From Candidatus Brocadia sp. (GTDB lineage Bacteria > Planctomycetota > Brocadiia > Brocadiales > Brocadiaceae): 32,000 nucleotides of DNA. Both the position numbers and the translations under genes were made by a program. The notes beneath the pieces were generated by a model, which ran no database searches, had not been told where the DNA came from, and worked only from the letters and a program-made list of their open reading frames with translations. Positions 33 to 21,347 of the stretch are shown here, in pieces. The DNA lies in assembly GCA_021650915.1 (NCBI GenBank), contig CP091279.1, forward strand, positions 330,001 through 362,000, read 5' to 3'. The first letter of the stretch is position 1. Every line of letters starts with the position of its first letter.

Positions 33-3000
33 GTGAAACATGTTTCTCGCTCGGATAGCATCGGGAAACAGATGGACGCACGGCAGGTGGCTGAGCCACT
101 GGTCTCGGTAATAATTCCCTGTTACAACCAGTCAAATTATTTGTCAGAGGCAGTTGAAAGTGTGGTTCATCAAGGCTATAAGAACTGGGAGTGCATTATT
201 GTTAATGATGGCAGCCCGGACGATGCAGCCTGCGTTGCTGAATTGTTGATTCAGAAATATCCGGACAAACGAATCCGGCTCGTGAATCAGGTGAACCAGG
301 GCTTGTCCTCTGCGCGGAACGCAGGAATCAAGGCAGCAAACGGTGAATATATCCTTCCCCTTGATGCGGATGATCTCATCCATCAGGACATGTTGCAAAA
401 GACAGTATCCTTATTAGCATCTCATCCGGAGATAGCAATTGCCTATACGGATGTAAGGCATTTTGGCGGTGCGGAACGAATTGTCTGTGCAGGAGAATAT
501 GATTTTAAACGATTATGTTTTCAAAATCATCTCAATTGTTGCTCACTGTACCGGCGTAAAGCCTGGGAGGCTGCAGGGGGGTATAATCCCAACATGACGT
601 GGGGGTACGAGGACTGGGATTTCTGGATATCCTGCGGAGAAAAAGGATATTATGGAAAGAGAATACCTGAGCCATTGTTTCTCTATCGGGTGAAAGAGAC
701 CAGTATGTATACAAAGGCCATTGAACATCATCGTGAGTTAATGGCTCAAATTATTGTCAACCACCCAAACCTTTATGACCCGAAATCCCTTTCAGAGGCA
801 AAAAGAATATTGGCTCCAGGGTGTACGGTTCCATTAAAAACCAAGCCCCTTGTTTCTGTTGTTGTGCCAACATATAACAGGCCAGACACCCTGAAAACTA
901 CCTTGGAAAGCATCGCTTCGCAGACGTACAAACATATCGAGGCAGTTGTGGTGAACGACGCAGGAGAAGACGTATCAACGGTTGTCGATCTTTTTCGTGA
1001 CCGGTTGCGTATTCAATATCTTGTTCACCCTGAGAATAAAGGGCTTGCAGCAGCAAGGAATACCGCTATCAGGCATGCTTCGGGTGAATATATTGCTTAC
1101 CTCGATGACGACGATATGTTTTATCAGGATCATATAGAAACCCTGGTAACGTATCTGGAAACGAGCGGTGATAAAGTAGCCTATACGGATGCATACCGCG
1201 TATGTCAGGAAAAAGAAGGCGGAAGGTATGCCATAAAACAAAAAGACGTTCCGTACTCCTTTGATTTCGATGCAGACCTCATTCTGGCACAAAACCTCTT
1301 TCCTGTCCTCTGCGTTATGCATCGAAAATCATGTCTGGATGAAGTAGGGCTTTTTGATGAGTCGCTCACCACCCATGAAGACTGGGATTTGTGGATTCGC
1401 ATATCCAGAAACTATCATTTTACCCATATAAAAAAGATCACCGGTGAGTTTACATGGAGGACAGATAGCGCCAGCATGTCGGGTGCAAGGCAAGCTGATT
1501 TTCTGAGGACAATGGGCATTATCTATGAAAAATACAAGAGCTATTTGCGAGACAAACAGCGGATTTTAGATTTGCAAACTGCATGGATTCAGCATCTTCA
1601 AAAGGTATCTATCATCATACCCGTTTTTAACAAGGTTGAATTCACCAAAAAATGCTGTGAGGCCTTGGTCAAAAATACACCACGAGGCCTGTACGAACTT
1701 ATTATTGTTGATAACGCATCAACAGATGATACCAGCGCTTTCCTGAAGGGGCTAAAAGGTGATGTTAAAATAATAACAAACGAAAAGAACCTGGGTTTTT
1801 CCAGGGCATGTAATCAGGGGGCACGGCTGGCCGCCACCAATTACCTCCTGTTCTTAAACAATGATACCGAACCGATGAAAGGGTGGTTGGAACCGCTCCT
1901 GCATATTCTTACCCAGGATAGCTCTGCAGGCGCTGTGGGCAGTAAACTTTTATTTCCGGACGGCACCATCCAGCATGCCGGGGTGGTAATTATCGATGAT
2001 CAAAAGTTACCTGATCCTCTGGTTGCCCGGCATGTTTATTATGGAGAACCCGGTGACGTCTCTGAGGCGAACCAATTGCGCCAGTACCAGGCATTAACCG
2101 CCGCCTGCCTCCTGGTAAGGAAGTCTGCATTTCATGAGGCAGGGGGGTTCGATGAGGCTTACTGGAACGGATACGAAGACGTAGACTTATGCTTTAATCT
2201 TCAGGAGAGGGGATGGAAGCTGGTTTATCAGCCCGAAAGCGTCCTCATCCATCATGAATCAAAAAGCGGCCCGGAACGTTTTTCTAAAGTATCAGAAAAC
2301 ATTCAGCGATTGCACAACAGGTGGATAGGCAAGATTAAGCCGGATATTCTTCTGAAGAAGGACGGATCAATGGCTATTACGGAAGATAGGAAAATACAGC
2401 GCTATCGAATGCCCAATGTGAGAGCAGCCCAATCGTGGGCTGGCAAGCAGCAAAAGCTGGTCTCCATAATTATACTTACCTGCAATGCCCTCGAATATAC
2501 TCAACAGTGCGTCAGTTCAATTCAAAAACATACGGGACGTCCATATGAAATTATCTTTGTTGATAACGCATCATCAGACGGTACCGTGGAATACCTGCGT
2601 AATCTTGCCGGAAAACAGGTAAACTATAAACTCATTGAAAATCGTGAAAACCTGGGCTTTGCAGCCGGGAATAATCAGGGGGTAGCCCTGGCACGCGGTG
2701 AGTACATTATGCTCCTGAACAATGACGTGCTGGTTTCTGATGGCTGGCTGGATGGTCTCGTGGAAGGTCTTGAAAGGGATGAAAAAATTGGCATGGTCGG
2801 GCCCATAACAAACTCAATCAGTGGTAGACAGATGGTAAGGGCGGTTCCCTATACCGATGAAGATGGATTTCATCACTTTTCACAGCGGGTGAGAAAGACT
2901 TATAGCGGGCGGCTGACTCCCAGAAACCGTATTGCTGGTTTTGCGGTATTGATGAGAAAGGCGCTTTATGACGAAGTAGGCGGACTCGATGAATCCTTTG

Positions 3001-3719
3001 GGACGGGAAATTATGAGGACGACGATTTGTGCCTGAAGGTACGTGGGAAGGGGTACGCTATCATGGTGGACGAGAGCGTGTTTATCCATCATTACGGAAG
3101 CAAAACCTTTCTTGCAAACAACATTGATTATCGGGGTAGTTTGTCGGTGAACGGGTCACACTTCAAAGAAAAATGGCCTGATGCAGATTATGATGAACTC
3201 CTTGAACTGCATACAAGTTTAGTTGATCTCAATGCCTCCATGCTGATAAAGGGTCAGGAGGCATTGGATGCAGGGCATCCGGCTGATGCCCTTGCCGTAT
3301 ATGCAAAAGTACTCACCGCAAACCCCATTGACGACGGCGCCTTGTACGGGACGGGACTCGCATTCCAAATGTCTGGCAAAACCGTCGAAGCCATTGCTGC
3401 ATTCAAAAAGGCATTGAAGGTAAACCCAACCCTCACTCATGCCTATGGCCGCCTTGCGCTTGCATACGAAAGTATGAATCAAACGGATGACGCCATTTCT
3501 GTACTTCAAAAGGCAACCGAATTCAACAATCATGACGCCGCAGTATATAACAATTTGGGGGTATTATATTTCAAAAAAAAGAACCACGCCAGCGCCCGAA
3601 ATTGTTTTGAGCGGGCATTATCAATTGATGTAAATTACCAGGAGGCGCAACAAAATCTCAAAAAAGTATCCTGGAGCAGCGAGAAAATAACCAATCACAC
3701 CTTCGCGCATATCTCGTAG
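33..3719 (+). CDS. Multidomain glycosyltransferase: four tandem family-2 (GT2) modules fused to C-terminal TPR repeats
   Basis: 1228-aa ORF. It has four copies of the GT2 N-terminal signature (VSVIIPCYN, VSVVVPTYN, VSIIIPVFN, VSIIILTCN). Each is followed by acidic DxD-type motifs (DADD; LDDDD; NNDT..YEDVDLC; NNDV..YEDDDLC). The last ~170 aa read as TPR repeats (ALAVYAKVL, AIAAFKKALKVNP, ARNCFERALSID). GTG at 33 or ATG at 72 could be the start. The frame is open to the window edge, so the start is uncertain. Confidence 0.85.
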   Translation: MKHVSRSDSIGKQMDARQVAEPLVSVIIPCYNQSNYLSEAVESVVHQGYKNWECIIVNDGSPDDAACVAELLIQKYPDKRIRLVNQVNQGLSSARNAGIKAANGEYILPLDADDLIHQDMLQKTVSLLASHPEIAIAYTDVRHFGGAERIVCAGEYDFKRLCFQNHLNCCSLYRRKAWEAAGGYNPNMTWGYEDWDFWISCGEKGYYGKRIPEPLFLYRVKETSMYTKAIEHHRELMAQIIVNHPNLYDPKSLSEAKRILAPGCTVPLKTKPLVSVVVPTYNRPDTLKTTLESIASQTYKHIEAVVVNDAGEDVSTVVDLFRDRLRIQYLVHPENKGLAAARNTAIRHASGEYIAYLDDDDMFYQDHIETLVTYLETSGDKVAYTDAYRVCQEKEGGRYAIKQKDVPYSFDFDADLILAQNLFPVLCVMHRKSCLDEVGLFDESLTTHEDWDLWIRISRNYHFTHIKKITGEFTWRTDSASMSGARQADFLRTMGIIYEKYKSYLRDKQRILDLQTAWIQHLQKVSIIIPVFNKVEFTKKCCEALVKNTPRGLYELIIVDNASTDDTSAFLKGLKGDVKIITNEKNLGFSRACNQGARLAATNYLLFLNNDTEPMKGWLEPLLHILTQDSSAGAVGSKLLFPDGTIQHAGVVIIDDQKLPDPLVARHVYYGEPGDVSEANQLRQYQALTAACLLVRKSAFHEAGGFDEAYWNGYEDVDLCFNLQERGWKLVYQPESVLIHHESKSGPERFSKVSENIQRLHNRWIGKIKPDILLKKDGSMAITEDRKIQRYRMPNVRAAQSWAGKQQKLVSIIILTCNALEYTQQCVSSIQKHTGRPYEIIFVDNASSDGTVEYLRNLAGKQVNYKLIENRENLGFAAGNNQGVALARGEYIMLLNNDVLVSDGWLDGLVEGLERDEKIGMVGPITNSISGRQMVRAVPYTDEDGFHHFSQRVRKTYSGRLTPRNRIAGFAVLMRKALYDEVGGLDESFGTGNYEDDDLCLKVRGKGYAIMVDESVFIHHYGSKTFLANNIDYRGSLSVNGSHFKEKWPDADYDELLELHTSLVDLNASMLIKGQEALDAGHPADALAVYAKVLTANPIDDGALYGTGLAFQMSGKTVEAIAAFKKALKVNPTLTHAYGRLALAYESMNQTDDAISVLQKATEFNNHDAAVYNNLGVLYFKKKNHASARNCFERALSIDVNYQEAQQNLKKVSWSSEKITNHTFAHIS

Positions 3720-4075: not shown

Positions 4076-4120
4076 ACCCAGCCAAACGCCACAATAACCA
4101 GGGCCAAGAGAAAATATTAT

Positions 4121-4206
4121 GATAAGGGCAAACCCGGAGTGATCCGGGGACGCAAAGTAACAGGGTCTTTTGTAGGGGCGTATTGCAATATGCCCCTACC
4201 GTTAGG
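4121..4206 (+). promoter_or_regulatory. Candidate c-di-GMP-I (GEMM-I) riboswitch aptamer
   Basis: GGGCAAA (4126-4132), then a perfect 6-bp stem CCCGGA/TCCGGG capped by a GNRA tetraloop GUGA (4133-4148), then GACGCAAAG (4149-4157). This is the same order and spacing as the Vc2 aptamer core as I recall it (GGGCAAA-CCAUUC-GAAA-GAGUGG-GACGCAAAG). UAAC/GUUA then closes a long hairpin (4158-4204). Recognised from memory of the consensus, not from a covariance model. Confidence 0.5.
4172..4199. repeat. 28-nt near-perfect palindrome GTAGGGGCGTATTGCAATATGCCCCTAC
   Basis: Self-complementary except for one G:T position. Its core CGTATTGCAATA recurs at 17911-17925. It forms the distal hairpin of the riboswitch candidate. 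Confidence 0.8.
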
Positions 4207-4215
4207 AAAAAGACA

Positions 4216-4269
4216 GCCTTACTGCCGAAGATGTTTTTAAAAAGACATTTTTGCGGTAAGGCTTTTTTT
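4216..4269 (+). terminator. Intrinsic terminator (expression platform of the riboswitch candidate)
   Basis: GCCTTACTGC (4216-4225) pairs with GCGGTAAGGC (4253-4262), with one G-U wobble. There is extra inner pairing (ATGTTTTT/AAAAAgACAT). A run of 7 T follows (4263-4269). Confidence 0.65.
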
Positions 4270-4914
4270 ATTTGCAGAAAGGAAAGCGAAGCCGCAGACT
4301 TCAGCCATTGGCTGGTTCAATCGTCCACGATTGAACCAAAAAGTTTGGCAAGATTTCATAATTATTGCATCGGTTCAGCCCAGGCGTGCCATACAAAACG
4401 TCTGGTTCTGTCTGCAAGACTGAACCTGCTTGGCGTGAATTACAAATACTCTCATAATCCTCCCCATTTACGGGAGGAAACAGGATGGAAAATGACAGGG
4501 TGTGCAATGCCCATCCTGCCTGGCTTTTATGTCCGAAGGGCAAACAGGATAGAGCAGGGGGTGAAGCCCCATGAGCGCGAACATGTTTCAGATGACCTCG
4601 AAGTATTTTGAGATACGCACCTTTCGTGTTCTTCGATTATCCTCTAAGGAACACGCAATGTTGTTCCAGTGCTCAAGAACCTCCTGTAATAGTAACGCTG
4701 GTTTTATTGCCCGTTCTCCTTAATGAAGCATAAAAAACGAAATTGTGCCATTAGCTTCGGGTCTTCTGGCCGTGCCATGAAGTATCCACAGAGGAAAAAA
4801 GAATGGGTAAAATCTGATGATTTATCTGTCAAAAGAACAACGAATAATTTGCACACAGCCGAGCCCCTGAGCTCTCGTTACCGTATTTATACTCAAGAAG
4901 CTCATAATTTATGA

Positions 4915-5132: not shown

Positions 5133-6062
5133 ATGATGCCACAAGAAGAGATAGACTTTATTCCTCACACACCGTCTGTGCTGAAGCAGATTTTCATCCG
5201 CCGGGGAATTACCCCCAATAAGCGGTTTGGCCAGAATTTTCTTATTGATCAGAATATTTTATTATCTATTCCGGATATTGCAGGCCTGACTGAGAATGAC
5301 ATTGTGCTCGAGATTGGGACGGGCACGGGCGGATTGACGAGGTTGTTGGCCGCCAGGTCCCGGCAGGTATTTACGATAGAGATAGATAGAAAGTTATTTG
5401 AACTGTCGTCAGACATCCTCAAATTATACAACAACGTAATCCCCATAAATGCGGATATATTAGAAACAAAGCATGAATTGAACCCACGCATAACCTCTTT
5501 GATCCTCAATTGGCTCAGAGAACACAAGCAGGCCGCGATAAAAGTTGTCTCCAATCTGCCCTACAATATCAGTACGCCGGTGGTCATCAATCTTTTGGAA
5601 AGCGATCTGCCCATTGATGTCATGGCGCTGATGCTTCAGCAAGAGATTACGGAACGGATGACAGCGCTTCCCAGCACCAGGGAGTACGGGATATTGTCAG
5701 TAATTATCCAATTGTTTTCTGATGTGGAGATCGTAAAGACCCTGCCTCCGGAGGTATTCTGGCCAAGACCGGAGGTACATTCGGCAATCGTTAAGATAAG
5801 TATCCGCAAAGAGAAGTATATTGGCAGAATCACAGACTATCCGTTTTTCAAGAAGGTCATCAACGCTATATTTACTTCACGTCGCAAGACACTGGTCAAT
5901 AGTCTTGGCAGTTTCAGTGTACCGGGAATTACCAGAGAACACCTGAAGCAGATTCTGAAAGAGATGCAACTGGACGAGAGAATACGGGGTGAAGTGTTGA
6001 ATCTGGATCAATTGATCAGCCTCTCTGAGTCGATTGGAAAGCTTAAAAAACACCTCTCATAA
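5133..6062 (+). CDS. rsmA: 16S rRNA (adenine1518/1519-N6)-dimethyltransferase RsmA/KsgA
   Basis: 309 aa. Has the FGQNFL motif, the SAM-binding EIGTGTGGLT motif and the NLPYNIS motif, all typical of KsgA/Dim1. Confidence 0.9.
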   Translation: MMPQEEIDFIPHTPSVLKQIFIRRGITPNKRFGQNFLIDQNILLSIPDIAGLTENDIVLEIGTGTGGLTRLLAARSRQVFTIEIDRKLFELSSDILKLYNNVIPINADILETKHELNPRITSLILNWLREHKQAAIKVVSNLPYNISTPVVINLLESDLPIDVMALMLQQEITERMTALPSTREYGILSVIIQLFSDVEIVKTLPPEVFWPRPEVHSAIVKISIRKEKYIGRITDYPFFKKVINAIFTSRRKTLVNSLGSFSVPGITREHLKQILKEMQLDERIRGEVLNLDQLISLSESIGKLKKHLS

Positions 6063-6405: not shown

Positions 6406-9400
6406 TCACCCGCAATTTTCACAACATATTTCCGGTACAACTGCCAGCCGCGATGTTCGCAGTATGCGATACCGCCCCAGTTCACGCGATAAGGGTCTTA
6501 CATCCGATACTTGCGCATCATAGTTATAAATGAACTGTTCATAACGCGGCATCATTTCTACCGCCAGTACACTCAACCCGATATTGCCACGCAGATGAAA
6601 CTGGTCCAGCAACAGATCAATCTCGTTAGCACTCCATCCGGCTTTGCCTGTTAACGGAATATCCGGGTTGGCTTGTAAACTATTGGCTGCAATTAACGTC
6701 AGGCTGGCCCGCGCCTTCAGGAATTCGGCTATCTGCTGCGGATGTGCGGTTTGTACATAGTCGAGTTTTACTTCCGATAACAAAATATTGCGGTTCTGTT
6801 TTCCATCGGCCTGTTTCACCTGGGCGTATAACATGCACCAGATTTCTGAACGCGGTGGCCTGGCCGTTACCTGTTTACCATTGAAAACAGCCTGTGCATA
6901 TTGGGCCGTTACCGCTATACCTTTATTGGTGCGTTCTACAAGGCATTTCAACGGTGGCGCCGGATGCTGCACACCGTTTACACGGGCAGGATGTCCGAAA
7001 CGGCCTTGCGCCGTACACCATATGGTATTGGTATGCCCAACCCTTAATTCATAGATGAAAAATCCGAAGAGTTCATTCGATTCATTATGCAATCCAGGCG
7101 GCAGGGGTAATAGATAATGCACCGGCGTTATTTTCATTAATGGCGTATCGGGATTAGGTGTTTCAGATACCATTAATTGCATGGCATCAATGCCGGCATT
7201 ATCATTGCCATGTCCTTTGGTAATCACCCGTATCAATTCCGGATCGATGGATAATGGCGGATCATCCTGTTTGACCAATACCTGGTCGGGATTGGGATAG
7301 GTTAGCAGGGGGTCTGGCGCATACGTAAGCACTCTTGCAAAATAGGCATCATTCGGGTCCTCTATAGGCGCTTCAAATTCGAACCATAAATATCTTTCAC
7401 GAGTGGCGGTTTCAGAGTAATCATCATTTTGCCGGTAAGGCGATAAGGCAATACCTGCTGCCACCACTTTGGGGACCTGTTTGGGTATAACGGTGGTGGG
7501 CAGGAGTACATCGGCTGTTGTAATTTGTGCATTGGCCGAAGCTGCCGATACGCTCTTGATAAATTGCGGCGTAAGCGTATATTTCACATCGATGGTATTA
7601 GGAAATGGTTGCGCAGCAGTTGCGGGTTTGTCCAGATCTTTTTTCGGTTCTACTGCATCGATAAAAACAATGCGGGTATAACTGCGGTCGGGATCGTTGA
7701 TGGCAATACGGCTGGCCGTTTTTTTCAATTCCAGATAACCTACTACTTCTGTTTCTTTCGTAGCAGGCTCGTTGGTAAATTGTTTTTCCCTCTCAAGTTT
7801 GATGCCGGTATCCGAAAGTCCGTCCCAGGTCCAGTCGCGGTTGATTTCATAAGACAGTACACATAACCAATGATTGAATAATTCGCCACTTGCGGCAAAG
7901 CTAAGTGAGGAGTTATCCGGCGCCAGGGTATGACGAATGCGATTGCTGCAACCGAACTGGATGCGTTCTCCCGGTTTGCCAATCAGCGATAATCCTTTAT
8001 AATCAAGATCCAGTTGAGCGGCCAGCCTTTGCATCACGGTAGTTTGCTCTGCTTCTTTCCCTGCCACGATTTCAGGAATAAAACTGACGGGATTTATTAT
8101 CTGTACCGGATCGGGTTGCAGGTAAATGCCCTGTAATTTTTTTGATTCCAACACCGGTTTAAAGAATTCCGGTTCGGCAGTGGCATCCTGCCTTACAAAA
8201 AATTGAATGGGTTCTCCCGTACGCACCAGTTCGCCTGCAATCAATTGCTTTTGCAAGCCAAAATAAGCAGGTGATGCTTCCTTATCGGAACAAACTGGGT
8301 ATAGTGTTATCCTCACGTCGCGGGAAGTGGGAACAACGATACTGTCGATTTGATCGATCTCTGTCTGTGAAATGTTCAAATCACCAAGGGTAAGGGTATT
8401 GCCAAAATCGATTACCCTGGCATCCCGGTATTCCAGATTCAGTTCATACGGTTCTTCCGGATCATGAGGAAATGTGCGGAAGGTTTTATACAAGGGAATA
8501 AAGGCTTCTTTCTGTGTTAAGGAAGCGAGATTATCCATCAACAATGTTCTTACTTCCACAATGACCATGATCTTGTCCACATCCGGATCAAAATAACTCA
8601 CCTCGCGCTGGTCTTTAATAGTTTCATTGGGAAGTTTGCCGGTATGCAAAAAGTTTTTATCATCCAGCAATTTCTGAAAAGCGTCTGCTGTATCCATTTC
8701 AGTGAACAGCAAAGCAGGATACCCAAGGCGCGGACGCAGGACTTCAAATCCTTCACCAGCATAAAAAATAATGGTGCCTGCATCCGGGGCAGGTTGTGCA
8801 GTAAGCGGTTTTAATGTTAGCTGCTTCGGCGCTACATATCTTTTAAAAATGATTGAAGAGCTGCTCGCCGGCGCATCGTTCAATTCATTGTCCGTTACCA
8901 GGGGGCCTCCGCCGGTCAGATCGGCAAAGCGCACACGGAATTCGTATTCCTTTCCATATTTCAATTCGCAATCTTCGGGAAGAAGAGGTTCGTACAATCC
9001 TCCTTTCTGTTCGGGAGGTATGGGTTTGATGCCATCGGTATATTTTCCGGGATCGGCCAATGCACCGGATGCATCCAGTTGTGCCGCCCTCGTATCGGGC
9101 AATACCAGTGAAGGGCCGTACCATTGTGTGAAATAACCCGGCAACCAGAAAAAAGCACCGGCATCGGCATTTACTTTCATGGGATATACCTGTACCCCTG
9201 TTTCCACGGGAGCGCCTGCAGGGGCAATGGTTTCACCTGCTAAGGTTAATTTCGCTTTGCTTTGCGTATTCACCAGGGAATTCCATGCCACGTTATTTTT
9301 TTCTTTTACATCCACGCGATAAGAAAACACTCCAAGCGGCGCATCGATACGTTGGCCCGGAGTCGTTGGATCAGATAAAAATTGCCGATTTTGCCAGATC

Positions 9401-10404
9401 AGCAATTGTTCGTCATCCCATCCCAGCCGGATACCCATTTCCTTTTGTACATGGATACCATCCGGTTCTTCACTTAATAAATTAGCGCTTACCGGTTGTA
9501 CCGCATGTACGATCTTGGCAAAGCCGTCATCATAATCGGCTACTTCTATTTTCAATAGATCAAACTGGCCATTGGGCTGGGCAGGACCGGGAACAACCGG
9601 AAACAGCACTGCTGCAAATAATTGCCTGGGCTGATCAATAGCCGGGATGCGTGCAGCATATTGTTTCAATTCTGTGGCTGCGTTGGTAATATCAAAATCT
9701 GTCAGGTTAGAAATAAGATTGAAATATACCCATCCGCCGTTTTCAAAATAGTTGGGATCGTTGAGATTCAGCGTCCAGGAATGCAATAAGCCAATGGCCC
9801 TTGCCAGTAATGGCTGGCGCAAACAAAATGCAATCACCCGGCCCCAGGTAATATCATCTTTCGATTGCTGAAAGGACGGATTCGGTTTGCCGGTACGTTT
9901 GATAGCACACTGATAGCTGTCATCTGTTTTGGCAAATGCGGTTCGCGGTGTAGTGAAATTAAAAGCGGTACGATAGGATTTCGGTAAATATTTCCGTATA
10001 CCATCCGCATCCGACAAAGGCGCACCGGCGCCTTTGGTAGTTCCCGATAAAGAAGTATCCAGCTTAAATTGCTTACTCAATCCTTCATATAATGCCGGAA
10101 GATTATTCGGGTAGGCCAGTGTGGTAGGCCATGTATCTGCCAAGACGCCTTCATTGGTCAATACGGTCGCATCGGAAAACGGATACGTGCTCAATCCTTT
10201 AATGGTCTTTATTTCCAGTTGCAGGTTAGCTTTGATAAACTTGGGCAGATCAACCGGGTTACCCGGATTCAGCACGCTATTGAACGTTGCCTGCGCATTC
10301 AATAAATTTTGCGTGGGCAATACCAAAACGTTTAGTTCAAGCTGATTGTCATTCACGCGTTGCGGAAAAGTAAGTATCCTGAGTTTTTCTGGCTGTAAAG
10401 GCAT
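6406..10404 (-). CDS. Giant hypothetical protein B (1332 aa), no recognisable domain
   Basis: Uninterrupted 3999-nt ORF with an ATG start, beginning 30 nt downstream of giant ORF A on the same strand. No signal peptide, Walker A or metal-binding motif seen. The C-terminus ends in CCENCG. Confidence 0.85.
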   Translation of the reverse strand: MPLQPEKLRILTFPQRVNDNQLELNVLVLPTQNLLNAQATFNSVLNPGNPVDLPKFIKANLQLEIKTIKGLSTYPFSDATVLTNEGVLADTWPTTLAYPNNLPALYEGLSKQFKLDTSLSGTTKGAGAPLSDADGIRKYLPKSYRTAFNFTTPRTAFAKTDDSYQCAIKRTGKPNPSFQQSKDDITWGRVIAFCLRQPLLARAIGLLHSWTLNLNDPNYFENGGWVYFNLISNLTDFDITNAATELKQYAARIPAIDQPRQLFAAVLFPVVPGPAQPNGQFDLLKIEVADYDDGFAKIVHAVQPVSANLLSEEPDGIHVQKEMGIRLGWDDEQLLIWQNRQFLSDPTTPGQRIDAPLGVFSYRVDVKEKNNVAWNSLVNTQSKAKLTLAGETIAPAGAPVETGVQVYPMKVNADAGAFFWLPGYFTQWYGPSLVLPDTRAAQLDASGALADPGKYTDGIKPIPPEQKGGLYEPLLPEDCELKYGKEYEFRVRFADLTGGGPLVTDNELNDAPASSSSIIFKRYVAPKQLTLKPLTAQPAPDAGTIIFYAGEGFEVLRPRLGYPALLFTEMDTADAFQKLLDDKNFLHTGKLPNETIKDQREVSYFDPDVDKIMVIVEVRTLLMDNLASLTQKEAFIPLYKTFRTFPHDPEEPYELNLEYRDARVIDFGNTLTLGDLNISQTEIDQIDSIVVPTSRDVRITLYPVCSDKEASPAYFGLQKQLIAGELVRTGEPIQFFVRQDATAEPEFFKPVLESKKLQGIYLQPDPVQIINPVSFIPEIVAGKEAEQTTVMQRLAAQLDLDYKGLSLIGKPGERIQFGCSNRIRHTLAPDNSSLSFAASGELFNHWLCVLSYEINRDWTWDGLSDTGIKLEREKQFTNEPATKETEVVGYLELKKTASRIAINDPDRSYTRIVFIDAVEPKKDLDKPATAAQPFPNTIDVKYTLTPQFIKSVSAASANAQITTADVLLPTTVIPKQVPKVVAAGIALSPYRQNDDYSETATRERYLWFEFEAPIEDPNDAYFARVLTYAPDPLLTYPNPDQVLVKQDDPPLSIDPELIRVITKGHGNDNAGIDAMQLMVSETPNPDTPLMKITPVHYLLPLPPGLHNESNELFGFFIYELRVGHTNTIWCTAQGRFGHPARVNGVQHPAPPLKCLVERTNKGIAVTAQYAQAVFNGKQVTARPPRSEIWCMLYAQVKQADGKQNRNILLSEVKLDYVQTAHPQQIAEFLKARASLTLIAANSLQANPDIPLTGKAGWSANEIDLLLDQFHLRGNIGLSVLAVEMMPRYEQFIYNYDAQVSDVRPLSRELGRYRILRTSRLAVVPEICCENCG

Positions 10405-10434
10405 AGAAATAATTAGAGTAGTTGAATAATTAAT

Positions 10435-13400
10435 TTAAGCAATTTGTCGCGATTCTTCCCAGCTGTCGGTGAAGTTGATATCGATCACCCATAATACACA
10501 TACATCTATTGAGAAAGTTACCTGCGCTACACAATTGGTGCGGTCGGTGGTCAGATCGCGATGAATACCACCACCGGCTTCTATCTGAATGCAGATAGCG
10601 ATCAATCCGCCACAGATCTCCGCTGATCCGCGGAACAACATGAGCGCTCCTACATCCAGGGAAGTGGTTCCTAATCCCACTTCCACTTCTACCATATATA
10701 ATACGGCTACATTGGCTACTACCGGTAACCCTACTACGATCTCTACGCCGAACCCAACTTTCATATACAGGTAAAGACCGGCTTTGCTGTCGGCCTGTAT
10801 ACCCAGCACTACCTGACCTACTGCATATACACTGGCCACAGCCAGGGTAAAACATTGTACCTGCAGCCTGCCGTAGAATTGGACATAGGCGCCGCAGGCG
10901 GGTACCAGCTGCTTGAGATCGCCGGGTATGGAAAGCACTTCGTTAAAATAGAAACCTACTTTCAACCCGGCTTCCAGTTTCAATGGCGGATTGGGATTGA
11001 TGGTGAGTTGTGCGGGAGAAGGAAATTTAATGACCGGGATTTCCTTGGAGCAATTGAATTTATATTCCCAACTCAGCGGTGCATTGCTCATGCCCACCTT
11101 CATGCCTTCATCAAAACCTTCGCCGGATAACATCGCCAGCACGCGTAATATATCTACTACAGGTTCTAATATCGGCCCGAACTGAAGATTGGGTTTATCA
11201 TATTTCGGATTAATGCCGCTGGAAGCATTGAAGTTTCCATCCACCCACATCAGTCTCTGGAAAGGACCGAGATCCACTACCACACGAATATTGGAAAGCG
11301 CAGCCTTCCACTTGTCGGCAATGGCAGCCACCGAATCAATACCCAATTTTAAATTACCATTACCTTCATTGCTTGAATATTCAGCATATACCTTTAAGAT
11401 ACCGGGCTCATCAATAAACGGGTATTGATAATTATTGGGCAATAGCGTGCCCAAATTAAGATTCCTGTCTGCCATCTTCATCAAACCTTCACCCAGTATC
11501 TGCAGTTCTTTTTCCGCATTGGTTAATTTCAGCGCATTGGCAATATTGGGAAATATACTTTTTGCATTGAGCAGTTTATAGGCGTCTGCAAAATACGTTT
11601 CATTGCTCAGCAGCTTTGGTACGCCGTTGCTGAATTGCGGAATATCGAATAATAATTTTTGCGTGCCGGTAGATTGCAATACGCCGAAATTAATTTTAGA
11701 AGCAGCCTGGACAACATCCGCAGGATTGGCAATCTTTACGTTGGTATTGCCATTGGCTTTGATCAGCGGAACGCTTTGTCCCTCTTCTACCGGTTTTACA
11801 TCGCCGCTATCGGTATGTTGTTTTACGACCGACCAGGAGCCATCCGGTGGTAAGATGAGTGAACCCCGGGCAGCGCTTACGAAAATGTTCTTCCCTGATG
11901 GATCTAATGCAGGATTGATATCGACACGCGAAAACCGCATCTTTTGCTTTGAACCGGCTATATCCATCGTACAGTCAACGGGTCCGCCGAGTGACCCGTT
12001 CTGGAAATTCAATAGGCCGGCAAAAACTTTAGGAGTGATCAGGATGCCCGTAGGAGACAGCTGTACATAACCGAGCATTTTGCGTGATTGAACTTTGAAA
12101 TCAGTACTGCTCTTTACTCCACCACTAGTTATATTATCCATATGCACATCGCCATCAAAGAGCACCGCTTGTAGTACAACCGGCAGTTGCTCATCAAGGC
12201 TAGTCAGGCTTTTAAAGACATGATCTTTCCAGTCGGTAAAGTTTTTGCCGGTAATTGACGGCAAACCGCTTTCATTCAAACTGAATGAAGAACTAAAGAC
12301 ACCTCCGGCAGGATAATCTTTTATTTCGCGAACATTGGACACGCCCTTAATTACACCTGCGTGAAATTCATAGGGATTCTTGATCTCCTTTAAATTCGGC
12401 TCACCGAAATCGATATTATAATCACAGTTATAAAATGCATCGCTTTCCGCTTTCCAGCCGGAATCAGAGCGGAATACGTATCCATTGGGGGAGCGCATCA
12501 GCGTTATGGTTCGTACCACATGTACAATACCTGTACACATATACATCACGCTTCTTACCTGCACCACTTCATGGGCAGTGCGTCCAACCAGTACATCGAA
12601 CTTGGCCTGACTCACGTCTGCTATCGCTGCGCCATCATTGAGCCAGTTACTGAATATACTGGCTCCATATCCGGAGAATTCAATTTTTTCCAGTGGTACT
12701 TTTGGTTTGTCAGCAGTGAATACTTTATTGAAAATATCTTTTACCTGTTTTCCCAGTGCGCTGCCGGAGATAGACAGTCCCAAAATGAACCACTTAATAT
12801 TATTGTCCAGCTGAAGAGTCCACCCTTTGAAAGAATTCTTTTCAAAAAATGACGTGGGAACAGGAGCCTCTGCTTTAATCTGTAACCCGCCGCGCAACTG
12901 GTTAAACCAGGGCATATGCAAATGAAGCTTTGCATTTTTGTTTTCGGGCTGGTTGATGTTGCGATTGAAATCGGCCTGTGCAATCATCGCAAATGGCAAT
13001 GTGAACGTTGAATGTAATTGCCGTGGAATTTGTTTGTCGTTGTACTCTTTTATAAAATGATGCGTTACCGATAAGGGTGTGATGGGCACCTGGTAAGGAC
13101 TTTCAGAAAATATATGCGTGGGGATGCCGTCATTATCATATACCAATATACCAGGGGTAACCGTAATCAGATCCTGTGGATCGGGCGGGCCTTCAATGGC
13201 CAGGGGAATATTGGAAATCGGTTCCCACGAAATTTGTGGTAAAGTAACTGCTCTTACATACTGACCAATACTCACTACATCCATATTCAATATCTGCAAC
13301 GGCATATTGGCTGCTGTGGAAACGGCGCGACTGGATACCGTGTCTATAGCAAGAAGATTGGTTTCACCATGCTCTCCTCTCTCCACACGGAAGCCCGTTC

Positions 13401-15765
13401 CAAAGCTAACGCCCATCTGGTCGGCATTGCTGGATACATCGAGCAGCATAAAAAGATCGCGGGCATATAATAAATTACTTCCTGTACTGACAGCCATGAA
13501 TGATCCTGCATCCATACTCGCTCCTGACACTACCGAACGATCAAACAAGCCACCGATGACAGACCGTTCCGTATTTCGCAAGGCGGTATCCAGTACGGCA
13601 TTCACCTGTTGCTTTTTGTCTTTAATATGACTGAGCAGTTGGTTTGATTCCAGGTTACGAATCGCTGTATTCAGATCATCTGATTGAACAGACCGGCGCA
13701 TCTTTTCACGGATATTGATATCCTGTACCGGTTGTAAAGCTTTTGCATGCAATGTTTCTTCCATGGGAACAAGCGGCAGATTCGCTTTATCAAGCGTCAT
13801 CCCTGTATTTAACGGCTGGTTAAAGGTGCGTACGCCGGTTTGAAAATTTCTGTTACCCGTTTGCACATTGCCTGTACCCGTATTGACGGAAGAAGTTCTT
13901 GAGGTAAATGCGGACTGATCGAATGGCACAAAACGGAAATATACATAAGCAGGATTATCCGCACTATCCTGCGGCTCAGCCACCTCTGCCGGATCAGGCC
14001 ATTTTACAAATCCTGCCAATGCCATTCCCGAACTACCGGAGCTCATCGCTTCCCTGCCTCGTAACAGGGAAGTATAGCTGGCCACATAGGGATCGGGCAA
14101 AGTGGGCAGGTATATATAAATACCATAGGTTAATACAGCTATACCTTTGGTAATGTGATTATCGTTCAGCAATTCTCCGGATAAAACCAGGCTATACGGA
14201 GCCGTAATGCTAAAAAATGCATTTCTCAGCGCAAGCGAATGGCGTATGTATGCGTCCGGTTTATTAAAGTTGCCATCGAATAATAAATCATTATCAAACA
14301 ACGACGCCCGGAAAGCAGTGCCTGTTTGCGTGATGCCTGCTAACGCAACAATGGATTCAATTTTAAACGGTGTGCCGTTCGCATCTACAGGCCTGTCGAA
14401 GGATGCTTTATGATTACAGAAATACCATACGCCTTCACTTCCTTTGGAAGAACTGATAAAAAGGAAGGGAAAGATTTTACCAAAGCCCAGGTTAATTTCT
14501 GAATGATGCTGAGAATGAGCATTTTCCCAGAGTATCCATTTTTGTTTGCCATACATGTTTTCTGCAAAAAAATCGATTACCGTTACCATGCCTGGTTCAA
14601 CGATGATAGCAGGGTGGTTCAGCCTGGTGTCGCCTCCCTTTAATCCTTTCCAGTTGGTGTGAATGCCTTTCTGTAACCCGATGCATAAAGCCCCGGTTCC
14701 CGATGCCGCGCCCAATTGTGACGGATTTAATTTTGCCGCAGGCAATAACCATCCGCTATTGGTATCCAGCTTTGCATTGTTTTTGAATGTACAGAGTTTG
14801 GAGCCGGATGAATGAATAGGAAAAGTATCCGGCGTATCACTCCTGGTGGTAACCGTATAAGGAATCAGTATCTGGCTCAGAAAACCGATCCATACCGGCG
14901 GCAGATTTTTAAATTGAAAATGGGTTTTAGTGTCAAATACGGTGCAGGAAGCATCCGGCGCTGTTACGGCGCTATGAAACGCATTGAATTGAAGCGAAAA
15001 GGTTTCCGGTAAATGAACCGTTGTGTTCGTGGCATCCAGTCCGGCATCGGCGGAAGGATTCGTGACGGTATTTTGATTGAGATCGAGCTGCAGGGAAGCC
15101 GTATTCGTCGGATGAATGATAATATTCCCGCCGCTGATCGTTGCATTTACAGAGAGATCGAGTGTACCGCCACGTACTTTTAAACCGGTATAATAACCTT
15201 GCAGCAAGGATGTTTTTGCAATGAAATGCGAGGCAATCCATACGCTGCCTGCTTCAATGCGATAGGATTTTTTCCCCGTCAATGTTCCCCACACCGGTAT
15301 CAATAAAGTCGGAGCAGCATTGCCCTGGATGTAAACACTTACCATTTTTACAGGTTGAAAAAAATCAAACCATATATCCAGGCCAAGGTCGTCTGTAAAA
15401 GGACCGTATGAATGCGTTACGGCCAATCCTGTTCCCCATTGCGGTACGGAGTTGCCGAGAAAAGTATTGTGAAAGGCGGTTTCCCTTTTAAAGATAAGCG
15501 GAGTAGTACCGCCAACTGCCGGCGGTTTTCTTTTCAGTAAATCGCTGATATGGCTAAAGCGTTCCGGCAGGTTGGGGACAGGTACGGTTCCTTCTGCGAC
15601 TGCATGCTGGAAACTGTTTCCTGAAATGGTCAGCTCAGGATGTTGCAGCAATTGCTCAGCCAAGATACGATGCAATGTCTTGAGGTCGTCATCGGTAGTG
15701 TCTTTGCCTGGTTTTAAGGTACCGGTAAGCTGATGAAGGGCAGATAACAACCGTTGACTATCCAT
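10435..15765 (-). CDS. Giant hypothetical protein A (1776 aa), no recognisable domain; C-terminal ~180 aa hydrophobic and Gly/Val-rich
   Basis: Uninterrupted 5331-nt ORF with an ATG start. The N-terminus MDSQRLLSALHQLTG lacks a signal peptide. No GxxxxGK[ST], HExxH or repeat modules seen. An A7 run at 15358-15364 is read through in frame. Confidence 0.85.
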   Translation of the reverse strand: MDSQRLLSALHQLTGTLKPGKDTTDDDLKTLHRILAEQLLQHPELTISGNSFQHAVAEGTVPVPNLPERFSHISDLLKRKPPAVGGTTPLIFKRETAFHNTFLGNSVPQWGTGLAVTHSYGPFTDDLGLDIWFDFFQPVKMVSVYIQGNAAPTLLIPVWGTLTGKKSYRIEAGSVWIASHFIAKTSLLQGYYTGLKVRGGTLDLSVNATISGGNIIIHPTNTASLQLDLNQNTVTNPSADAGLDATNTTVHLPETFSLQFNAFHSAVTAPDASCTVFDTKTHFQFKNLPPVWIGFLSQILIPYTVTTRSDTPDTFPIHSSGSKLCTFKNNAKLDTNSGWLLPAAKLNPSQLGAASGTGALCIGLQKGIHTNWKGLKGGDTRLNHPAIIVEPGMVTVIDFFAENMYGKQKWILWENAHSQHHSEINLGFGKIFPFLFISSSKGSEGVWYFCNHKASFDRPVDANGTPFKIESIVALAGITQTGTAFRASLFDNDLLFDGNFNKPDAYIRHSLALRNAFFSITAPYSLVLSGELLNDNHITKGIAVLTYGIYIYLPTLPDPYVASYTSLLRGREAMSSGSSGMALAGFVKWPDPAEVAEPQDSADNPAYVYFRFVPFDQSAFTSRTSSVNTGTGNVQTGNRNFQTGVRTFNQPLNTGMTLDKANLPLVPMEETLHAKALQPVQDINIREKMRRSVQSDDLNTAIRNLESNQLLSHIKDKKQQVNAVLDTALRNTERSVIGGLFDRSVVSGASMDAGSFMAVSTGSNLLYARDLFMLLDVSSNADQMGVSFGTGFRVERGEHGETNLLAIDTVSSRAVSTAANMPLQILNMDVVSIGQYVRAVTLPQISWEPISNIPLAIEGPPDPQDLITVTPGILVYDNDGIPTHIFSESPYQVPITPLSVTHHFIKEYNDKQIPRQLHSTFTLPFAMIAQADFNRNINQPENKNAKLHLHMPWFNQLRGGLQIKAEAPVPTSFFEKNSFKGWTLQLDNNIKWFILGLSISGSALGKQVKDIFNKVFTADKPKVPLEKIEFSGYGASIFSNWLNDGAAIADVSQAKFDVLVGRTAHEVVQVRSVMYMCTGIVHVVRTITLMRSPNGYVFRSDSGWKAESDAFYNCDYNIDFGEPNLKEIKNPYEFHAGVIKGVSNVREIKDYPAGGVFSSSFSLNESGLPSITGKNFTDWKDHVFKSLTSLDEQLPVVLQAVLFDGDVHMDNITSGGVKSSTDFKVQSRKMLGYVQLSPTGILITPKVFAGLLNFQNGSLGGPVDCTMDIAGSKQKMRFSRVDINPALDPSGKNIFVSAARGSLILPPDGSWSVVKQHTDSGDVKPVEEGQSVPLIKANGNTNVKIANPADVVQAASKINFGVLQSTGTQKLLFDIPQFSNGVPKLLSNETYFADAYKLLNAKSIFPNIANALKLTNAEKELQILGEGLMKMADRNLNLGTLLPNNYQYPFIDEPGILKVYAEYSSNEGNGNLKLGIDSVAAIADKWKAALSNIRVVVDLGPFQRLMWVDGNFNASSGINPKYDKPNLQFGPILEPVVDILRVLAMLSGEGFDEGMKVGMSNAPLSWEYKFNCSKEIPVIKFPSPAQLTINPNPPLKLEAGLKVGFYFNEVLSIPGDLKQLVPACGAYVQFYGRLQVQCFTLAVASVYAVGQVVLGIQADSKAGLYLYMKVGFGVEIVVGLPVVANVAVLYMVEVEVGLGTTSLDVGALMLFRGSAEICGGLIAICIQIEAGGGIHRDLTTDRTNCVAQVTFSIDVCVLWVIDINFTDSWEESRQIA

Positions 15766-15815
15766 AATCCGTTATGAGATGATAAGAAATTGCTACCTTT
15801 TATCAAACATGACAG

Positions 15816-16268
15816 TCAATGTAACAAAAGCAAAGAAAATTGCAAGGTATTTTTATACATGGTAGGGAAATGATCAATTTCCTGCAGGTGATTCTTGAAG
15901 GACGATACCTGTTCAGTCCCCTTTGAAATAGGTATAAATCTTCGGTTTCCCCGTTTCCCGAAAGCGTTTTTAACGCGGCTTCAAATTCTTCCTGGGCATA
16001 TTTTCCTATCCTGGTAAAAAAACAAACTTACAACGATATCGCATGTCTTAATGGCCTTGTTATACTCGTCTTGTAAACGGGTATCAGAAATAGCATCTAA
16101 AAAGTACTCCCACTGCACTAATTCAAGGTACATGCCTTTTTTGTGCAAGCGGTCATTTTCGATGCTTAGGAATATCCTGAATGCATCCCTGTCTTCTTTT
16201 AAGTCAGAGGATGAGGCAAGAAAGATTTTGATGGTTTTTGGAGAAGTTTCCCTTTTTCCATTGCTCAT
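15816..16268 (-). pseudogene. TIR / nucleoside-2-deoxyribosyltransferase-like (flavodoxin-fold) domain gene, disrupted by at least 3 frameshifts
   Basis: Frame 1 (ATG at 16268) reads MSNGKRETSPKTIKIFLASSSDLKEDRDAFRIFLSIENDRLHKKGMYLELVQWEYFLDAISDTRLQDEYNKAIKTCDIVVSLFF. The sense continues only after shifting frame at the A7/T7 run 16016-16022 (TRIGKYAQEEFEAALK). A second shift is needed at the T5 run 15967-15971 (RFRETGKPKIYTYFKGD). A third is needed near the C4 run 15918-15921 (EQVSSFKNHLQEIDHFPTMYKN). The domain assignment is from remembered family patterns (KIFLxSSS..., CDIxVxLFF, GKPxIxTYFK). Confidence 0.5.
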
Positions 16269-16461
16269 AGCGCAGCTGCAACCAAAAATAACTACCTCGC
16301 TTCCCCGCCTTCGCAAAGAAGGGATAAGATGGAGATAAAAACCTTGCTAAAAAAGGACGATTTTACTCAGCAATACCATACCGCAGTACAGCTGCAACCA
16401 AGTCTCCATTAACAAAGAGGGTAAAGGGGGTTGTCAGGAATCTCCCGAAAAGAGAAAGATT

Positions 16462-19661: not shown

Positions 19662-21316
19662 ATGCATATTGTGGAAAACAAATCAAAATCCGGCAAAAAA
19701 ATCTATCGCTCCATTCTTTTGCGGGAATCGTATCGGGAAGGCGGAAAGGTCAGGAAGCGTACCATTGCAAATCTGTCGAACTGCACATCGCGGGAGATAG
19801 AAGCGATAAAGCTTGCCCTCAGCCATAAAGAGGATCTCACTGCATTGGGGGCATTGTCAGGATCGGTGGAACTCCAGGAGGGGATGTCCGTGGGGGCGAT
19901 CTGGAGTGTGTACCAGGTGGCAAAGGAATTAGGGATAGAGGAGGCGTTGGGGAAGGATTTTCAAGGGAGACTGGCGCTGTGGCAGGTAATGGCGCGGGTG
20001 ATAAATCAGGGGTCAAGACTCTCGGCGGTGCGGCTGGCGCATGTGCATGCAGCGGGTGATGTGCTGGGTATGAAGCGGGGGTTCGACGAGAATGATCTCT
20101 ACGATAATTTATCGTGGTTATCGGAGCAACAGGCGAGGATAGAGCGAACGTTGTTTGAGGCAAGACGGGCAGGCAAGAAGCCGAAGCTGTTTCTGTATGA
20201 CGTGACGAGCAGTTATCTGGAGGGGAGCAGAATCGTTTTGGTGAGTACGGGTATAATCGTGACGGCAAGAAGGGGAAGAAGCAGATCGTGATTGGTATGC
20301 TGTGTGATGAATTTGGGGAGCCGGTGTCCACGGAGGTTTTTCGGGGCAATACTCAGGACCCAAAGACCTTTGAGTCTCAGGTAAAGAAGACGGCAGAACG
20401 GTTTGGGTGCACCGGGGTGACCATGGTAGGTGATCGGGGGATGATCAAGACGATGCAAATCGAATGTTTACCGGAGGGGTTTCATTACATAACGGCGATA
20501 ACCAAGCCGCAGATCGAGTCGTTGATAAAACAAGGGATTCTGCAGTTAGGGTTGTTTGAAGAAAAGCTCTGCGAGATAAAGAGTGAGGGGGTTCGGTATA
20601 TTCTGAGACGCAATCCGATAAGGGCAGAAGAGATGGCGAAGACTCGCATGTCAAAATTACAGAGTATGGAGAGATATGTCGAGAAGAGGAATGGTTATTT
20701 GAGAGAACATCCGAAGGCATCGGTATTGAAGGCGCTGGGGGCAGCGAAGGAGAAGCTCGGGAAGCTGAAGCTTGAGGGGTGGGTGCAGATAAAAGACGAG
20801 GCCGGGGCGCTGAAGATTGAGAACAATGAAGAAGCATTCAAGGAAGAATCGTATCTTGATGGATGTTATGTAATCAAGACCGATCTGAAGGAGGGCGATG
20901 CGGATGCCGATCTGGTGCACGACCGGTACAAGGACTTGTCAGAGGTGGAGAAGGTGTTTCGGGGGTGCAAGACGGTGAATCTTGAGGTTCGTCCTGTATA
21001 CGTGAGGAAAGAAGAGAGTACAAAAGGGCATGTGTTTGTGGTAATGCTTGCGTACCTGATAATCCGAAGGTTACGTGATGCGTGGAAGAGTTTTGATCTG
21101 ACGGTAGAGGAAGGACTCAAACAATTGACTACCATTTGTTCCGTGGAAGTGAAGGTGAAGGGTCAAAAGGCGCATTGCCAGAAGATACCACGTCCACGGC
21201 AACAATCACGTGAATTGTTAGAGGCATTGCAGGTAAAGCTGCCGGAGGCATTGCCAAGCCGGAACCTACGGGTAGTCACGAGAAAAAAACTTACCAGGCA
21301 ACAAATAAGCCAGTAA
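19662..21316 (+). pseudogene. IS1634-family DDE transposase, split by a 1-nt frameshift
   Basis: The N-terminal ORF (19662-20291) and the C-terminal ORF (20288-21316) join as ...LFLYDVTSSYLEG|EQNRFGEYGYNRDGKKGKKQIVIG... if one G is added to the G4 run at 20223-20226. The C-terminal part has DGCYVIKTDL and the HVFVVMLAYLI region typical of IS4/IS1634 transposases. Confidence 0.8.
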
Positions 21317-21320
21317 AATT

Positions 21321-21347
21321 AAGGCTTTCGCAGCCTTTTTGTTTTTT
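21321..21347 (+). terminator. Intrinsic terminator inside the IS, after the transposase gene
   Basis: AAGGCT / AGCCTT stem with loop TTCGC, followed by TTTGTTTTTT. Confidence 0.6.

Follow-up and report, generated by a model that had tools for sequence, protein, structure and literature searches.

Beta-barrel pore formers such as aerolysin, alpha-haemolysin, the MACPF/CDC proteins and the gasdermins are soluble when made and turn amphipathic hairpins into a barrel, and the gasdermins act from the cytoplasmic side of the membrane without a signal peptide. Tc (ABC) toxins, TcdA, TcdB and colicins follow a multi-subunit logic with a membrane-penetrating component, and autotransporters, LptD, ushers, SprA and SlpA are outer-membrane barrels with passengers. 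Here we describe two adjacent giant genes, designated A and B, in a stretch of 32,000 nucleotides (nt) from Candidatus Brocadia sp. (assembly GCA_021650915.1, contig CP091279.1, positions 330,001 to 362,000 of the forward strand; hereafter the window). The A-B pair is an ancient, self-contained, co-inherited two-gene unit that, by the tests available (sequence libraries, and Foldseek searches against the PDB and the BFVD collection of viral models), falls outside every known kind of system. We tentatively propose that its products may be a binary membrane-active complex made in the cytoplasm, in which A would insert into membranes or form pores and B would be its partner.

The pair consists of the following elements, with positions counted from the first letter of the window, open reading frames (ORFs) given in amino acids (aa), and gene A called from both its ORF and its translation.

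10435..15765, minus strand: gene A, 1776 aa, ATG start (L3J18_01530; BROFUL_02150/KKO19167.1 in Ca. Brocadia fulgida)
6406..10404, minus strand: gene B, an ORF of 1332 aa, ATG start (L3J18_01525; KKO19166.1 in B. fulgida)
10405..10434, minus strand: A-B intergenic spacer of 30 nt, with A and B on the same strand, head-to-tail

ORF calls returned the same coordinates, strand, lengths and 30-nt gap as an initial annotation of the window, which had been made from the letters alone. Together A and B comprise about 9.3 kilobases (kb) of coding sequence, and both proteins are identical to their Ca. Brocadia fulgida counterparts. Motif and repeat scans agreed with the initial annotation on what the proteins lack: Walker A, HExxH, YD-repeat core and lipobox motifs were absent from both, neither carried a signal peptide, an N-terminal hydrophobic segment or internal protein repeats, and no DNA tandem repeats were found at the locus. 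There was no convincing terminator between A and B, and the genomic arrangement suggests that the two genes are probably co-transcribed.

We identified 113 homologues of A, mostly full-length (1750-1800 aa), that shared 54-81 % identity across phyla and were all named hypothetical, together with 1363 homologues of B, the best 120 of which shared 61-85 % identity. A phmmer search with residues 1-1200 of B against 1.84 billion cluster representatives returned 980 clusters at the 50 % identity level with E<=1e-3, including 370 at E<=1e-30. Scanning one genome per species revealed the pair in Chitinophagaceae, many Acidobacteriota, Methylomirabilota, Rhodanobacteraceae, Bradyrhizobium rifense, Caballeronia terrestris and Cyanobium, and Mucilaginibacter was among the hosts of B homologues. 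Overall, the pair was spread over at least 10 phyla, with representatives in Planctomycetota, Bacteroidota, Acidobacteriota, Methylomirabilota, Alpha-, Beta- and Gammaproteobacteria, Cyanobacteria, Bacillota and Chloroflexota, a distribution that is wide but sporadic and takes in monoderms as well as diderms.

In every locus with a contig long enough to show pairing, A was followed by B on the same strand, with a gap of 9-44 nt across loci and a stop/start overlap in Microvirga. The next ORFs after the distant A-like proteins P0111-P0113 (26-40 % identity) were B-like at 31-43 % identity, and megaplasmids carried pairs of 1617 and 1232 aa in Bacillus toyonensis, 1695 and 1202 aa in Ca. Chlorohelix, and 1604 and 1216 aa in Microvirga terrae, the last being the pair with the overlapping stop and start. 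In Tistrella mobilis, a 1230-aa ORF was present approximately 1 kb upstream of a 1219-aa B-like gene. A clade seeded from the Bacillus protein comprised B. thuringiensis, Microcystis, Flavobacteriia and Saprospiraceae sequences at 48-90 % identity. The conserved adjacency expected of the two-protein module in the initial annotation was therefore found in all informative loci, the 26-40 % identical relatives included.

Pairwise amino-acid identities of A and B were tightly correlated (r = 0.98 over 78 locus pairs), and both genes therefore travel and evolve as a unit. Paralogy between A and B was ruled out (hhalign probability 0.3 %). Both genes are under strong purifying selection, with a median ratio of non-synonymous to synonymous divergence (dN/dS) of 0.15 for A and 0.12 for B wherever dS was computable; between Brocadia and all other hosts dS was saturated, and dN was 0.30-0.40 for A and 0.22-0.31 for B. 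Cross-phylum transfer of the cassette is evident; the Acidobacteriaceae and Rhodanobacteraceae copies shared 80 % (A) and 89 % (B) amino-acid identity at a dS of 0.5-0.7. Acquisition by Brocadia was old, because the Brocadia copy lies at a dS of 1.8 from its closest relative outside the genus and is also carried by Ca. Brocadia fulgida. Its nearest non-Brocadia relatives (74-85 % identity) were found in unrelated contexts. In sum, the family is mobile over evolutionary time yet long resident in each host and strongly constrained, and it is no fresh island.

Base composition was examined in the window and across hosts. The initial annotation had noted a GC excess of the pair over its neighbours, which was not reproduced: GC was 0.458 for A and 0.468 for B, against 0.448 for rsmA, 0.461 for the GT2-TPR gene, 0.484 for hflX and 0.505 for the ATP-grasp gene, and the distances of A and B in third-position GC (GC3) and relative synonymous codon usage lay inside the spread of the neighbours. 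This match in GC, GC3 and codon usage ruled out a recent foreign island by composition. The horizontal acquisition proposed in that annotation is consequently not supported as a recent, local event, given also the dS of 1.8, and stands as transfer between phyla at the level of the family. Cassette GC tracked host GC, from 0.46 in Brocadia to 0.67 in Cyanobium and one Acidobacteriota genome, with GC3 ranging from 0.45 to 0.9. It also regressed toward approximately 0.5 (loci L038, L039, L001 and L007 compared with L005 and L012), exceeding the flanks by 3-7 points in low-GC hosts and falling short of them by 2-7 points in some high-GC hosts; amelioration is therefore incomplete, or limited by amino-acid composition. 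An assembly chimera was also ruled out, as identical junctions (ATP-grasp gene, A-B, rsmA) recurred without any breakpoint in six or more contigs from independent assemblies, GCA_000987375.1 among them.

Searches of the sequence libraries placed neither protein. Pfam-A, NCBIfam and PADLOC-DB yielded no family for A or B at E<=1, and the matches in PHROGs were marginal (E 0.09-0.41) and did not rise above noise. No PDB sequence matched A or B in single-sequence or family-profile queries, the results being at chance level (E 0.6-3), and a profile of the C-terminal module of A alone also returned nothing from the PDB (best E 0.6). A Pfam scan of the divergent Bacillus and Chlorohelix members was likewise empty, 2.9 million viral contigs held no relatives of A or B, and literature searches by concept, accession and locus tag in the searchable library returned nothing on these proteins or an equivalent system. 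The initial annotation had stated that the module could not be placed in any described family, and this held, with no confident profile or structure match to Tc toxins, adhesins, extracellular contractile injection systems (eCIS) or type VI secretion systems (T6SS).

A conservation profile of 99 sequences and an AlphaFold2 model resolved protein A into four regions.

13996..15765, minus strand: N-terminal domain of A (approximately aa 1-590), column identity 0.5-0.74, almost no indels
13486..13995, minus strand: variable, partly low-complexity linker of A (approximately aa 591-760), column identity 0.30-0.45, an indel hotspot
10996..13485, minus strand: predicted central/C-terminal beta-rich domain of A (approximately aa 761-1590), from AlphaFold2 model m080052802f51
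10471..10995, minus strand: predicted C-terminal amphipathic beta-hairpin module of A (aa 1591-1765), from hydropathy and the strands of the model

The N-terminal domain is kept at 25-31 % identity in distant A-like proteins. Across 19 loci, A homologues shared a conserved hydrophilic N-terminus, M(D/N)xxxI(L/F)xRLQQLTGxLKP, at the same start position, and none had a signal peptide (maximum KD10 in the first 50 aa, 0.84). Residues 760-1776 form a highly conserved region, and the AlphaFold2 model of residues 741-1776, built with the family alignment, was almost entirely beta with many long strands (mean predicted local distance difference test score, pLDDT, 80.5; predicted template modelling score, pTM, 0.74). 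Its pLDDT was below 50 at the linker end, where the modelled stretch starts, and mostly 85-97 over aa 761-1590, which comprised long antiparallel strands.

The only hydrophobic segments of either protein were found in residues 1636-1763 of A. Between residues 1595 and 1757 the model places eight predicted strands in succession, each 15-21 residues long, and family-averaged hydropathy revealed strict i/i+2 alternation in all eight, with a hydrophobic face of V, I, L, F, A and M (mean Kyte-Doolittle +1.9 to +3.3) and a polar face rich in G, S, T, E, K, D, R, Q and Y (+0.15 to -1.7). A sliding scan placed 47 of the 60 strongly amphipathic windows of A within residues 1591-1765 and found almost none in B. 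Column identity in this module was approximately 0.8-0.87, among the highest in A, and the amphipathic pattern was kept in Chlorohelix, P0111, P0113 and the Bacillus clades, even below 20-30 % identity. The initial annotation had described both proteins as free of recognizable features, which holds for library matches but not for this strongly amphipathic, hydrophobic beta-hairpin module. In one divergent pair from a soil metagenome-assembled genome (MAG; locus L026, 10001-19641), both genes were split, B into ORFs of 933 and 522 aa, and the last 140 aa of A, exactly the amphipathic module, formed a separate overlapping ORF; these splits may be due to either pseudogenization or sequencing frameshifts.

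As modelled, the array of four hairpins with one aliphatic face looks like a membrane beta-barrel or pore stem, and equally like a lipid-binding groove. Foldseek matches to A in the PDB were large antiparallel beta-meander and barrel proteins, led by LptD (E 3.5e-6) and including the OmpT porin (probability 1.0; TM-score normalized by target 0.33), ushers, SlpA, SprA, MtrB and two matches to microsomal triglyceride transfer protein (MTP). The matches in BFVD were weak throughout and comprised tail fibres, porins, DUF481 and autotransporter beta-domains.

In the tentative proposal of a membrane-active complex, A and B would both be made in the cytoplasm, because signal peptides are missing from both in every host. 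The four amphipathic hairpins of A would then enter a lipid bilayer to form a beta-barrel or pore stem, either singly or once A has oligomerized, and B, made from the same transcript, would be an obligate partner that either keeps A soluble before insertion or binds the target and triggers insertion, as chaperone, trigger or binder. The target may be a foreign cell's membrane, reached once lysis has freed the proteins in the manner of Tc toxins, large clostridial toxins and colicins; alternatively, it may be the producer's own membrane, attacked from inside as with gasdermins. A physical complex of A and B, insertion into membranes, the formation of pores and the biological role are all inferred, whereas the pairing, co-inheritance, constraint and spread of the genes, their absence from the libraries and the conserved amphipathic pattern are observed.

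Several observations weigh against this proposal. The module was modelled with a pLDDT of only 62-77, and although LptD, porins and ushers were matched at high probability, the Foldseek TM-scores of A normalized by query were at most 0.14 with a root-mean-square deviation above 17 Å, so that these matches speak to fold class only. The amphipathic sheet could just as well form a soluble core against the remainder of A, or line a groove for lipid. For a released toxin, it is awkward that the neighbourhood of the pair has no conserved gene for lysis, secretion or immunity. Finally, toxins and immune effectors normally diversify, whereas A and B remain 55-85 % conserved from phylum to phylum, an unusually high level for either.

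An improbable alternative in our judgement is a lipid-binding or lipid-transfer machine in which the sheet of A would line a hydrophobic groove that carries or sequesters lipids or other hydrophobic molecules and B would be a structural partner, on the model of the LptD/LptA jellyroll, the AsmA/TamB/YhdP beta-taco, VPS13-type bridges or the sheets of MTP, apoB and vitellogenin. Such a machine would show the same strict strand amphipathy, and both the top Foldseek match (LptD) and the two MTP matches are lipid handlers, yet the LptD match is explained as easily by its 26-strand barrel, and neither Pfam nor NCBIfam linked the pair to AsmA, TamB/DUF490, LptD or OstA. High conservation and housekeeping-like dN/dS are more in keeping with a physiological role than with a weapon. 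The spread of the pair is sporadic, which argues against a core function, and it takes in monoderms as well as diderms; known bacterial bridges are envelope proteins, whereas A and B have no N-terminal anchor or signal peptide.

Protein B was conserved uniformly except at residues 1201-1240, and one feature stood out at its C-terminus.

6409..6435, minus strand: C-terminal Cys motif of B, PEIC(CENCG), from C-terminal sequences of 19 loci, with a near-invariant Cys column

Many B homologues ended exactly at ...APEIC, and none of the 12 Cys residues of B occurred in a CxEQ context. The AlphaFold2 model of residues 1-1200 (m9b85f57b72a4; mean pLDDT 71, pTM 0.60) was mostly beta with few helices, and residues 1000-1200 were poorly defined. 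Its Foldseek matches in the PDB were led by the alpha-2-macroglobulin of E. coli (ECAM; E 5e-6), followed by C3/C5, arrestins, FnIII arrays and C5a peptidase, at TM-scores normalized by query of 0.06-0.12 that indicate only a generic MG/FnIII/arrestin-type fold class. The model suggests that B is a soluble string of beta-sandwich domains without a hydrophobic segment. Two members of the B family, P0249 (1809 aa) and P0352 (991 aa), carried a C-terminal extension with FG-GAP repeats. Proteins with MG/FnIII-like sandwiches or FG-GAP extensions typically work outside the cell. For the proposed complex, the extracellular-type fold class of B and the extensions on some of its relatives lean towards action outside the producer after release.

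The all-beta, multi-domain make-up of both proteins, which lack catalytic motifs, also bears on a non-membrane assembly, whether a cytoplasmic or surface scaffold, a cage, an adhesin-like fibre or a storage body, in which the sheet of A would be an oligomerization or core-packing interface. Very strong conservation over the whole length is typical of self-assembling structures, and the weak BFVD matches included tail-fibre and host-specificity proteins. We nevertheless consider such an assembly unlikely: neither repeats nor fibre-like periodicity were detected, there is no export signal for a surface structure, the viral contigs held no relatives and the PHROGs matches were marginal, and one-face hydrophobicity over eight long strands exceeds that of typical soluble interfaces.

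Many invariant clusters of Asp, Glu, His and Arg were also present, for example DYDDG (290-294), WDDEQ (329-333) and QH (1146-1147) in B. These would suit an unrecognized enzyme pair, such as one that modifies polysaccharide, peptidoglycan or lipid, with active sites in folds too divergent for profiles. Carbohydrate-active enzymes with beta-sandwich or beta-helix folds often escape profiles, and large glycosyltransferase genes lie near the pair in the window, but this neighbourhood is not kept elsewhere, no enzyme-family fold was matched except the marginal Fn3 region of C5a peptidase, and no cofactor or nucleotide motif was found. Overall, we regard such an enzyme pair as very unlikely.

Beyond B, no further partner of A was conspicuous in the genomic surroundings of other hosts. 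No third conserved gene was present within 10 kb on either side at 20+ loci, and all-against-all ORF clustering of 24 loci gave recurrent families only within the A/B span, where they represented shadow ORFs. Pfam and PADLOC scans of 138 flanking ORFs from 20 loci revealed heterogeneous flanks, in which histidine kinases, AraC regulators and response regulators were commonest and metabolic genes were also present. Defence matches comprised one Septu PtuA/PtuB, one QatC and three AAA_21, a defence gene occurred within approximately 4 kb at only a minority of the loci, and no consistent defence-island location was found. The flanks also lacked a recurrent integrase or transposase, which ruled out a transposon-like selfish element. 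A phage or prophage gene was ruled out by the lack of viral-contig matches and the restriction of a tail-sheath neighbour to one locus. At this locus, from a Chitinophagaceae MAG (L001, 6042-9178), a phage-tail-sheath-like gene and an M23 peptidase gene were located immediately upstream of the pair; the sheath neighbour is probably coincidental.

These surroundings bear on abortive infection (Abi) or programmed cell death, in which B would sense infection and free A to perforate the producer's own membrane, following gasdermin or Abi logic. Cytoplasmic location of both proteins, the candidate membrane-insertion module of A, a sporadic distribution and cross-phylum transfer would all suit such a role, as would the copies on megaplasmids or near toxin-antitoxin, Septu, QatC or CRISPR genes and, in the window, a nearby decayed TIR-like gene with insertion sequence (IS) and intron debris. 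It is nonetheless a doubtful explanation, as PADLOC gave no match, the flanks hold mostly regulators and metabolic genes with defence genes near the minority noted above, and the NTPase, nuclease and protease domains usual for sensors are missing. Conservation is moreover far above that usual for arms-race genes, and no known Abi system resembles 3100 aa of beta-sandwich protein. Amongst the roles offered in the initial annotation, a pore former thus gains some support from the C-terminal module of A, and the scaffold of a conflict system gains little, since the flanks are not defence islands. The lipid-handling, abortive-infection and structural readings all stay alive beside the proposed membrane-active complex because no lysis, secretion or immunity gene is conserved and conservation is high for a weapon.

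Upstream of the pair in the window, no Shine-Dalgarno (SD)-like sequence was present 5' of either ATG, in line with the initial annotation. Acidobacteriota homologues carried AGGAAG or GAAGG upstream of A and B, and those of Bacteroidota were without SD, like Brocadia; because the missing SD is thus host-typical, it is not a mark of foreignness. A consensus scan returned one promoter-like site ahead of A.

15779..15806, minus strand: promoter-like site TTGATA-16 nt-TATCAT, 10/12 consensus matches, ending 13 nt before the ATG of A

Promoter-like sites were rarer in the region than in shuffled sequence, and this site is not evidence of function. As a candidate promoter it would leave a very short 5' untranslated region, consistent with the absent SD. 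The pair is bordered by two genes, in agreement with the initial annotation.

5133-6062, plus strand: rsmA/ksgA, convergent with B
15981-16316, minus strand: decayed short ORF upstream of A, with a weak DUF4062 (TIR-like) match (E 2e-3, below gathering score)

Reading of the sequence suggests that the decayed ORF is a frameshift-truncated gene, and it was not kept beside the pair in other hosts. The ATP-grasp and then the hflX genes follow beyond it.

Elsewhere in the window, a 1228-aa protein encoded at 33-3719 (plus strand) contained four tandem GT2 glycosyltransferase domains and C-terminal TPR repeats, and in B. fulgida this gene sits in a larger cluster of glycosyltransferase and methyltransferase genes. 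At 4118-4230 (plus strand) lies a c-di-GMP-I-GGC riboswitch aptamer (RF03167; 60.3 bits, gathering score 59). A 142-aa ORF with a TTG start (4183-4611) begins within the aptamer; it lacks any Pfam match and has an implausible translation, and the first solid gene further downstream is rsmA at 5133. Mobile-element debris was present at 19662-22589 (plus strand). ORFs 19662-20291 and 20288-21316 read, by eye only, like one frameshifted DDE/IS-type transposase in a region of extreme GC skew (+0.3 to +0.38), and they are followed by a group II intron reverse transcriptase/maturase ORF (21381-22415; RVT_1 and GIIM) and the intron catalytic domain RF00029 (22442-22589). A full-length tmRNA gene (RF00023, 174 bits) was found at 23567-23922 (minus strand).

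Maintaining 9.3 kb under strong purifying selection across many phyla is a large investment for a function without a name. If A is a membrane-inserting hairpin protein, it would add a new architecture to pore-forming or membrane-remodelling biology, and a pair that instead handled lipids or served immunity would have a form no less without precedent. The presence of the pair in cultured hosts makes its function directly testable; these include Bradyrhizobium rifense CTAW71, Caballeronia terrestris LMG 22937, Acidobacteriaceae KBS 89, Mucilaginibacter aquaedulcis, Bacillus toyonensis DC11, Microvirga terrae R24 and Tistrella mobilis.

Comparison with described systems revealed partial likenesses to several, although the pair departed from every one of them in at least one defining feature. 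For B, the closest structural class is that of the alpha-2-macroglobulin/C3 multi-MG proteins, which are likewise long beta-sandwich chains, but TM-scores normalized by query were 0.06-0.09 for this class, and B has no A2M Pfam match, CxEQ, signal peptide or lipobox, whereas ECAM is a periplasmic lipoprotein. AsmA/TamB/YhdP proteins and the LptD jellyroll are also giant, N/T/Q-rich and beta-rich with one hydrophobic sheet face. The pair differs from these conduits in having no profile match to them and no N-terminal anchor, in occurring in monoderms, and in the restriction of amphipathy to the last 175 residues of A rather than its whole length. Catalogued defence systems gave no match among the PADLOC-DB 2.0 profiles and share no consistent island location with the pair. 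With regard to phage tails, eCIS and T6SS, no sheath, tube, baseplate, spike or fibre homology rose above noise, the BFVD tail-fibre matches having TM-scores of at most 0.12.

Outer-membrane barrels with passengers provided the best Foldseek matches for A, which resembles autotransporter-type barrels in combining a large N-terminal part with a C-terminal amphipathic strand array whose last strand ends in the aromatic-containing VIDINF. However, A homologues have no signal peptide and no Pfam outer-membrane protein or autotransporter match, A runs 11 residues past the last strand to end in ...RQIA without a terminal aromatic, and the pair is also carried by the monoderms Bacillus toyonensis and B. 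thuringiensis and by Ca. Chlorohelix (Chloroflexota). Tc toxins, TcdA, TcdB and colicins share with the pair adjacent giant genes without signal peptides and a multi-subunit logic with a membrane-penetrating component, and TcB contains FG-GAP repeats, as do some B relatives. In contrast, A and B have no VRP1/TcA, SpvB or RHS/YD match, no Tc, RHS or teneurin chain occurred in the top 50 Foldseek PDB matches, and the TcA channel is alpha-helical whereas this pair is all-beta. The cassette moreover comprises two conserved genes only, with no TcC-like third gene and no conserved lysis cassette, and is conserved far above the level of toxins.

The beta-barrel pore formers share with A the hairpins of alternating residues and, in the case of gasdermins, the absence of a signal peptide. 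Neither Pfam nor PDB sequence or profile searches matched A or B to aerolysin/ETX-MTX2, leukocidin, MACPF/CDC or gasdermin, and none of these was among the Foldseek matches. A differs from them further in carrying four predicted hairpins (eight strands) per chain rather than one or two, in being 5-10 times larger, and in having an obligatory 1332-aa partner. It is possible, though we hold it less likely than the complex itself, that A and B represent a new class of two-component, cytoplasmic beta-barrel membrane-perforating machines, unrelated to aerolysins, MACPF/CDC proteins, gasdermins and Tc toxins, which, if true, would constitute a new branch of pore-forming or cell-death biology.

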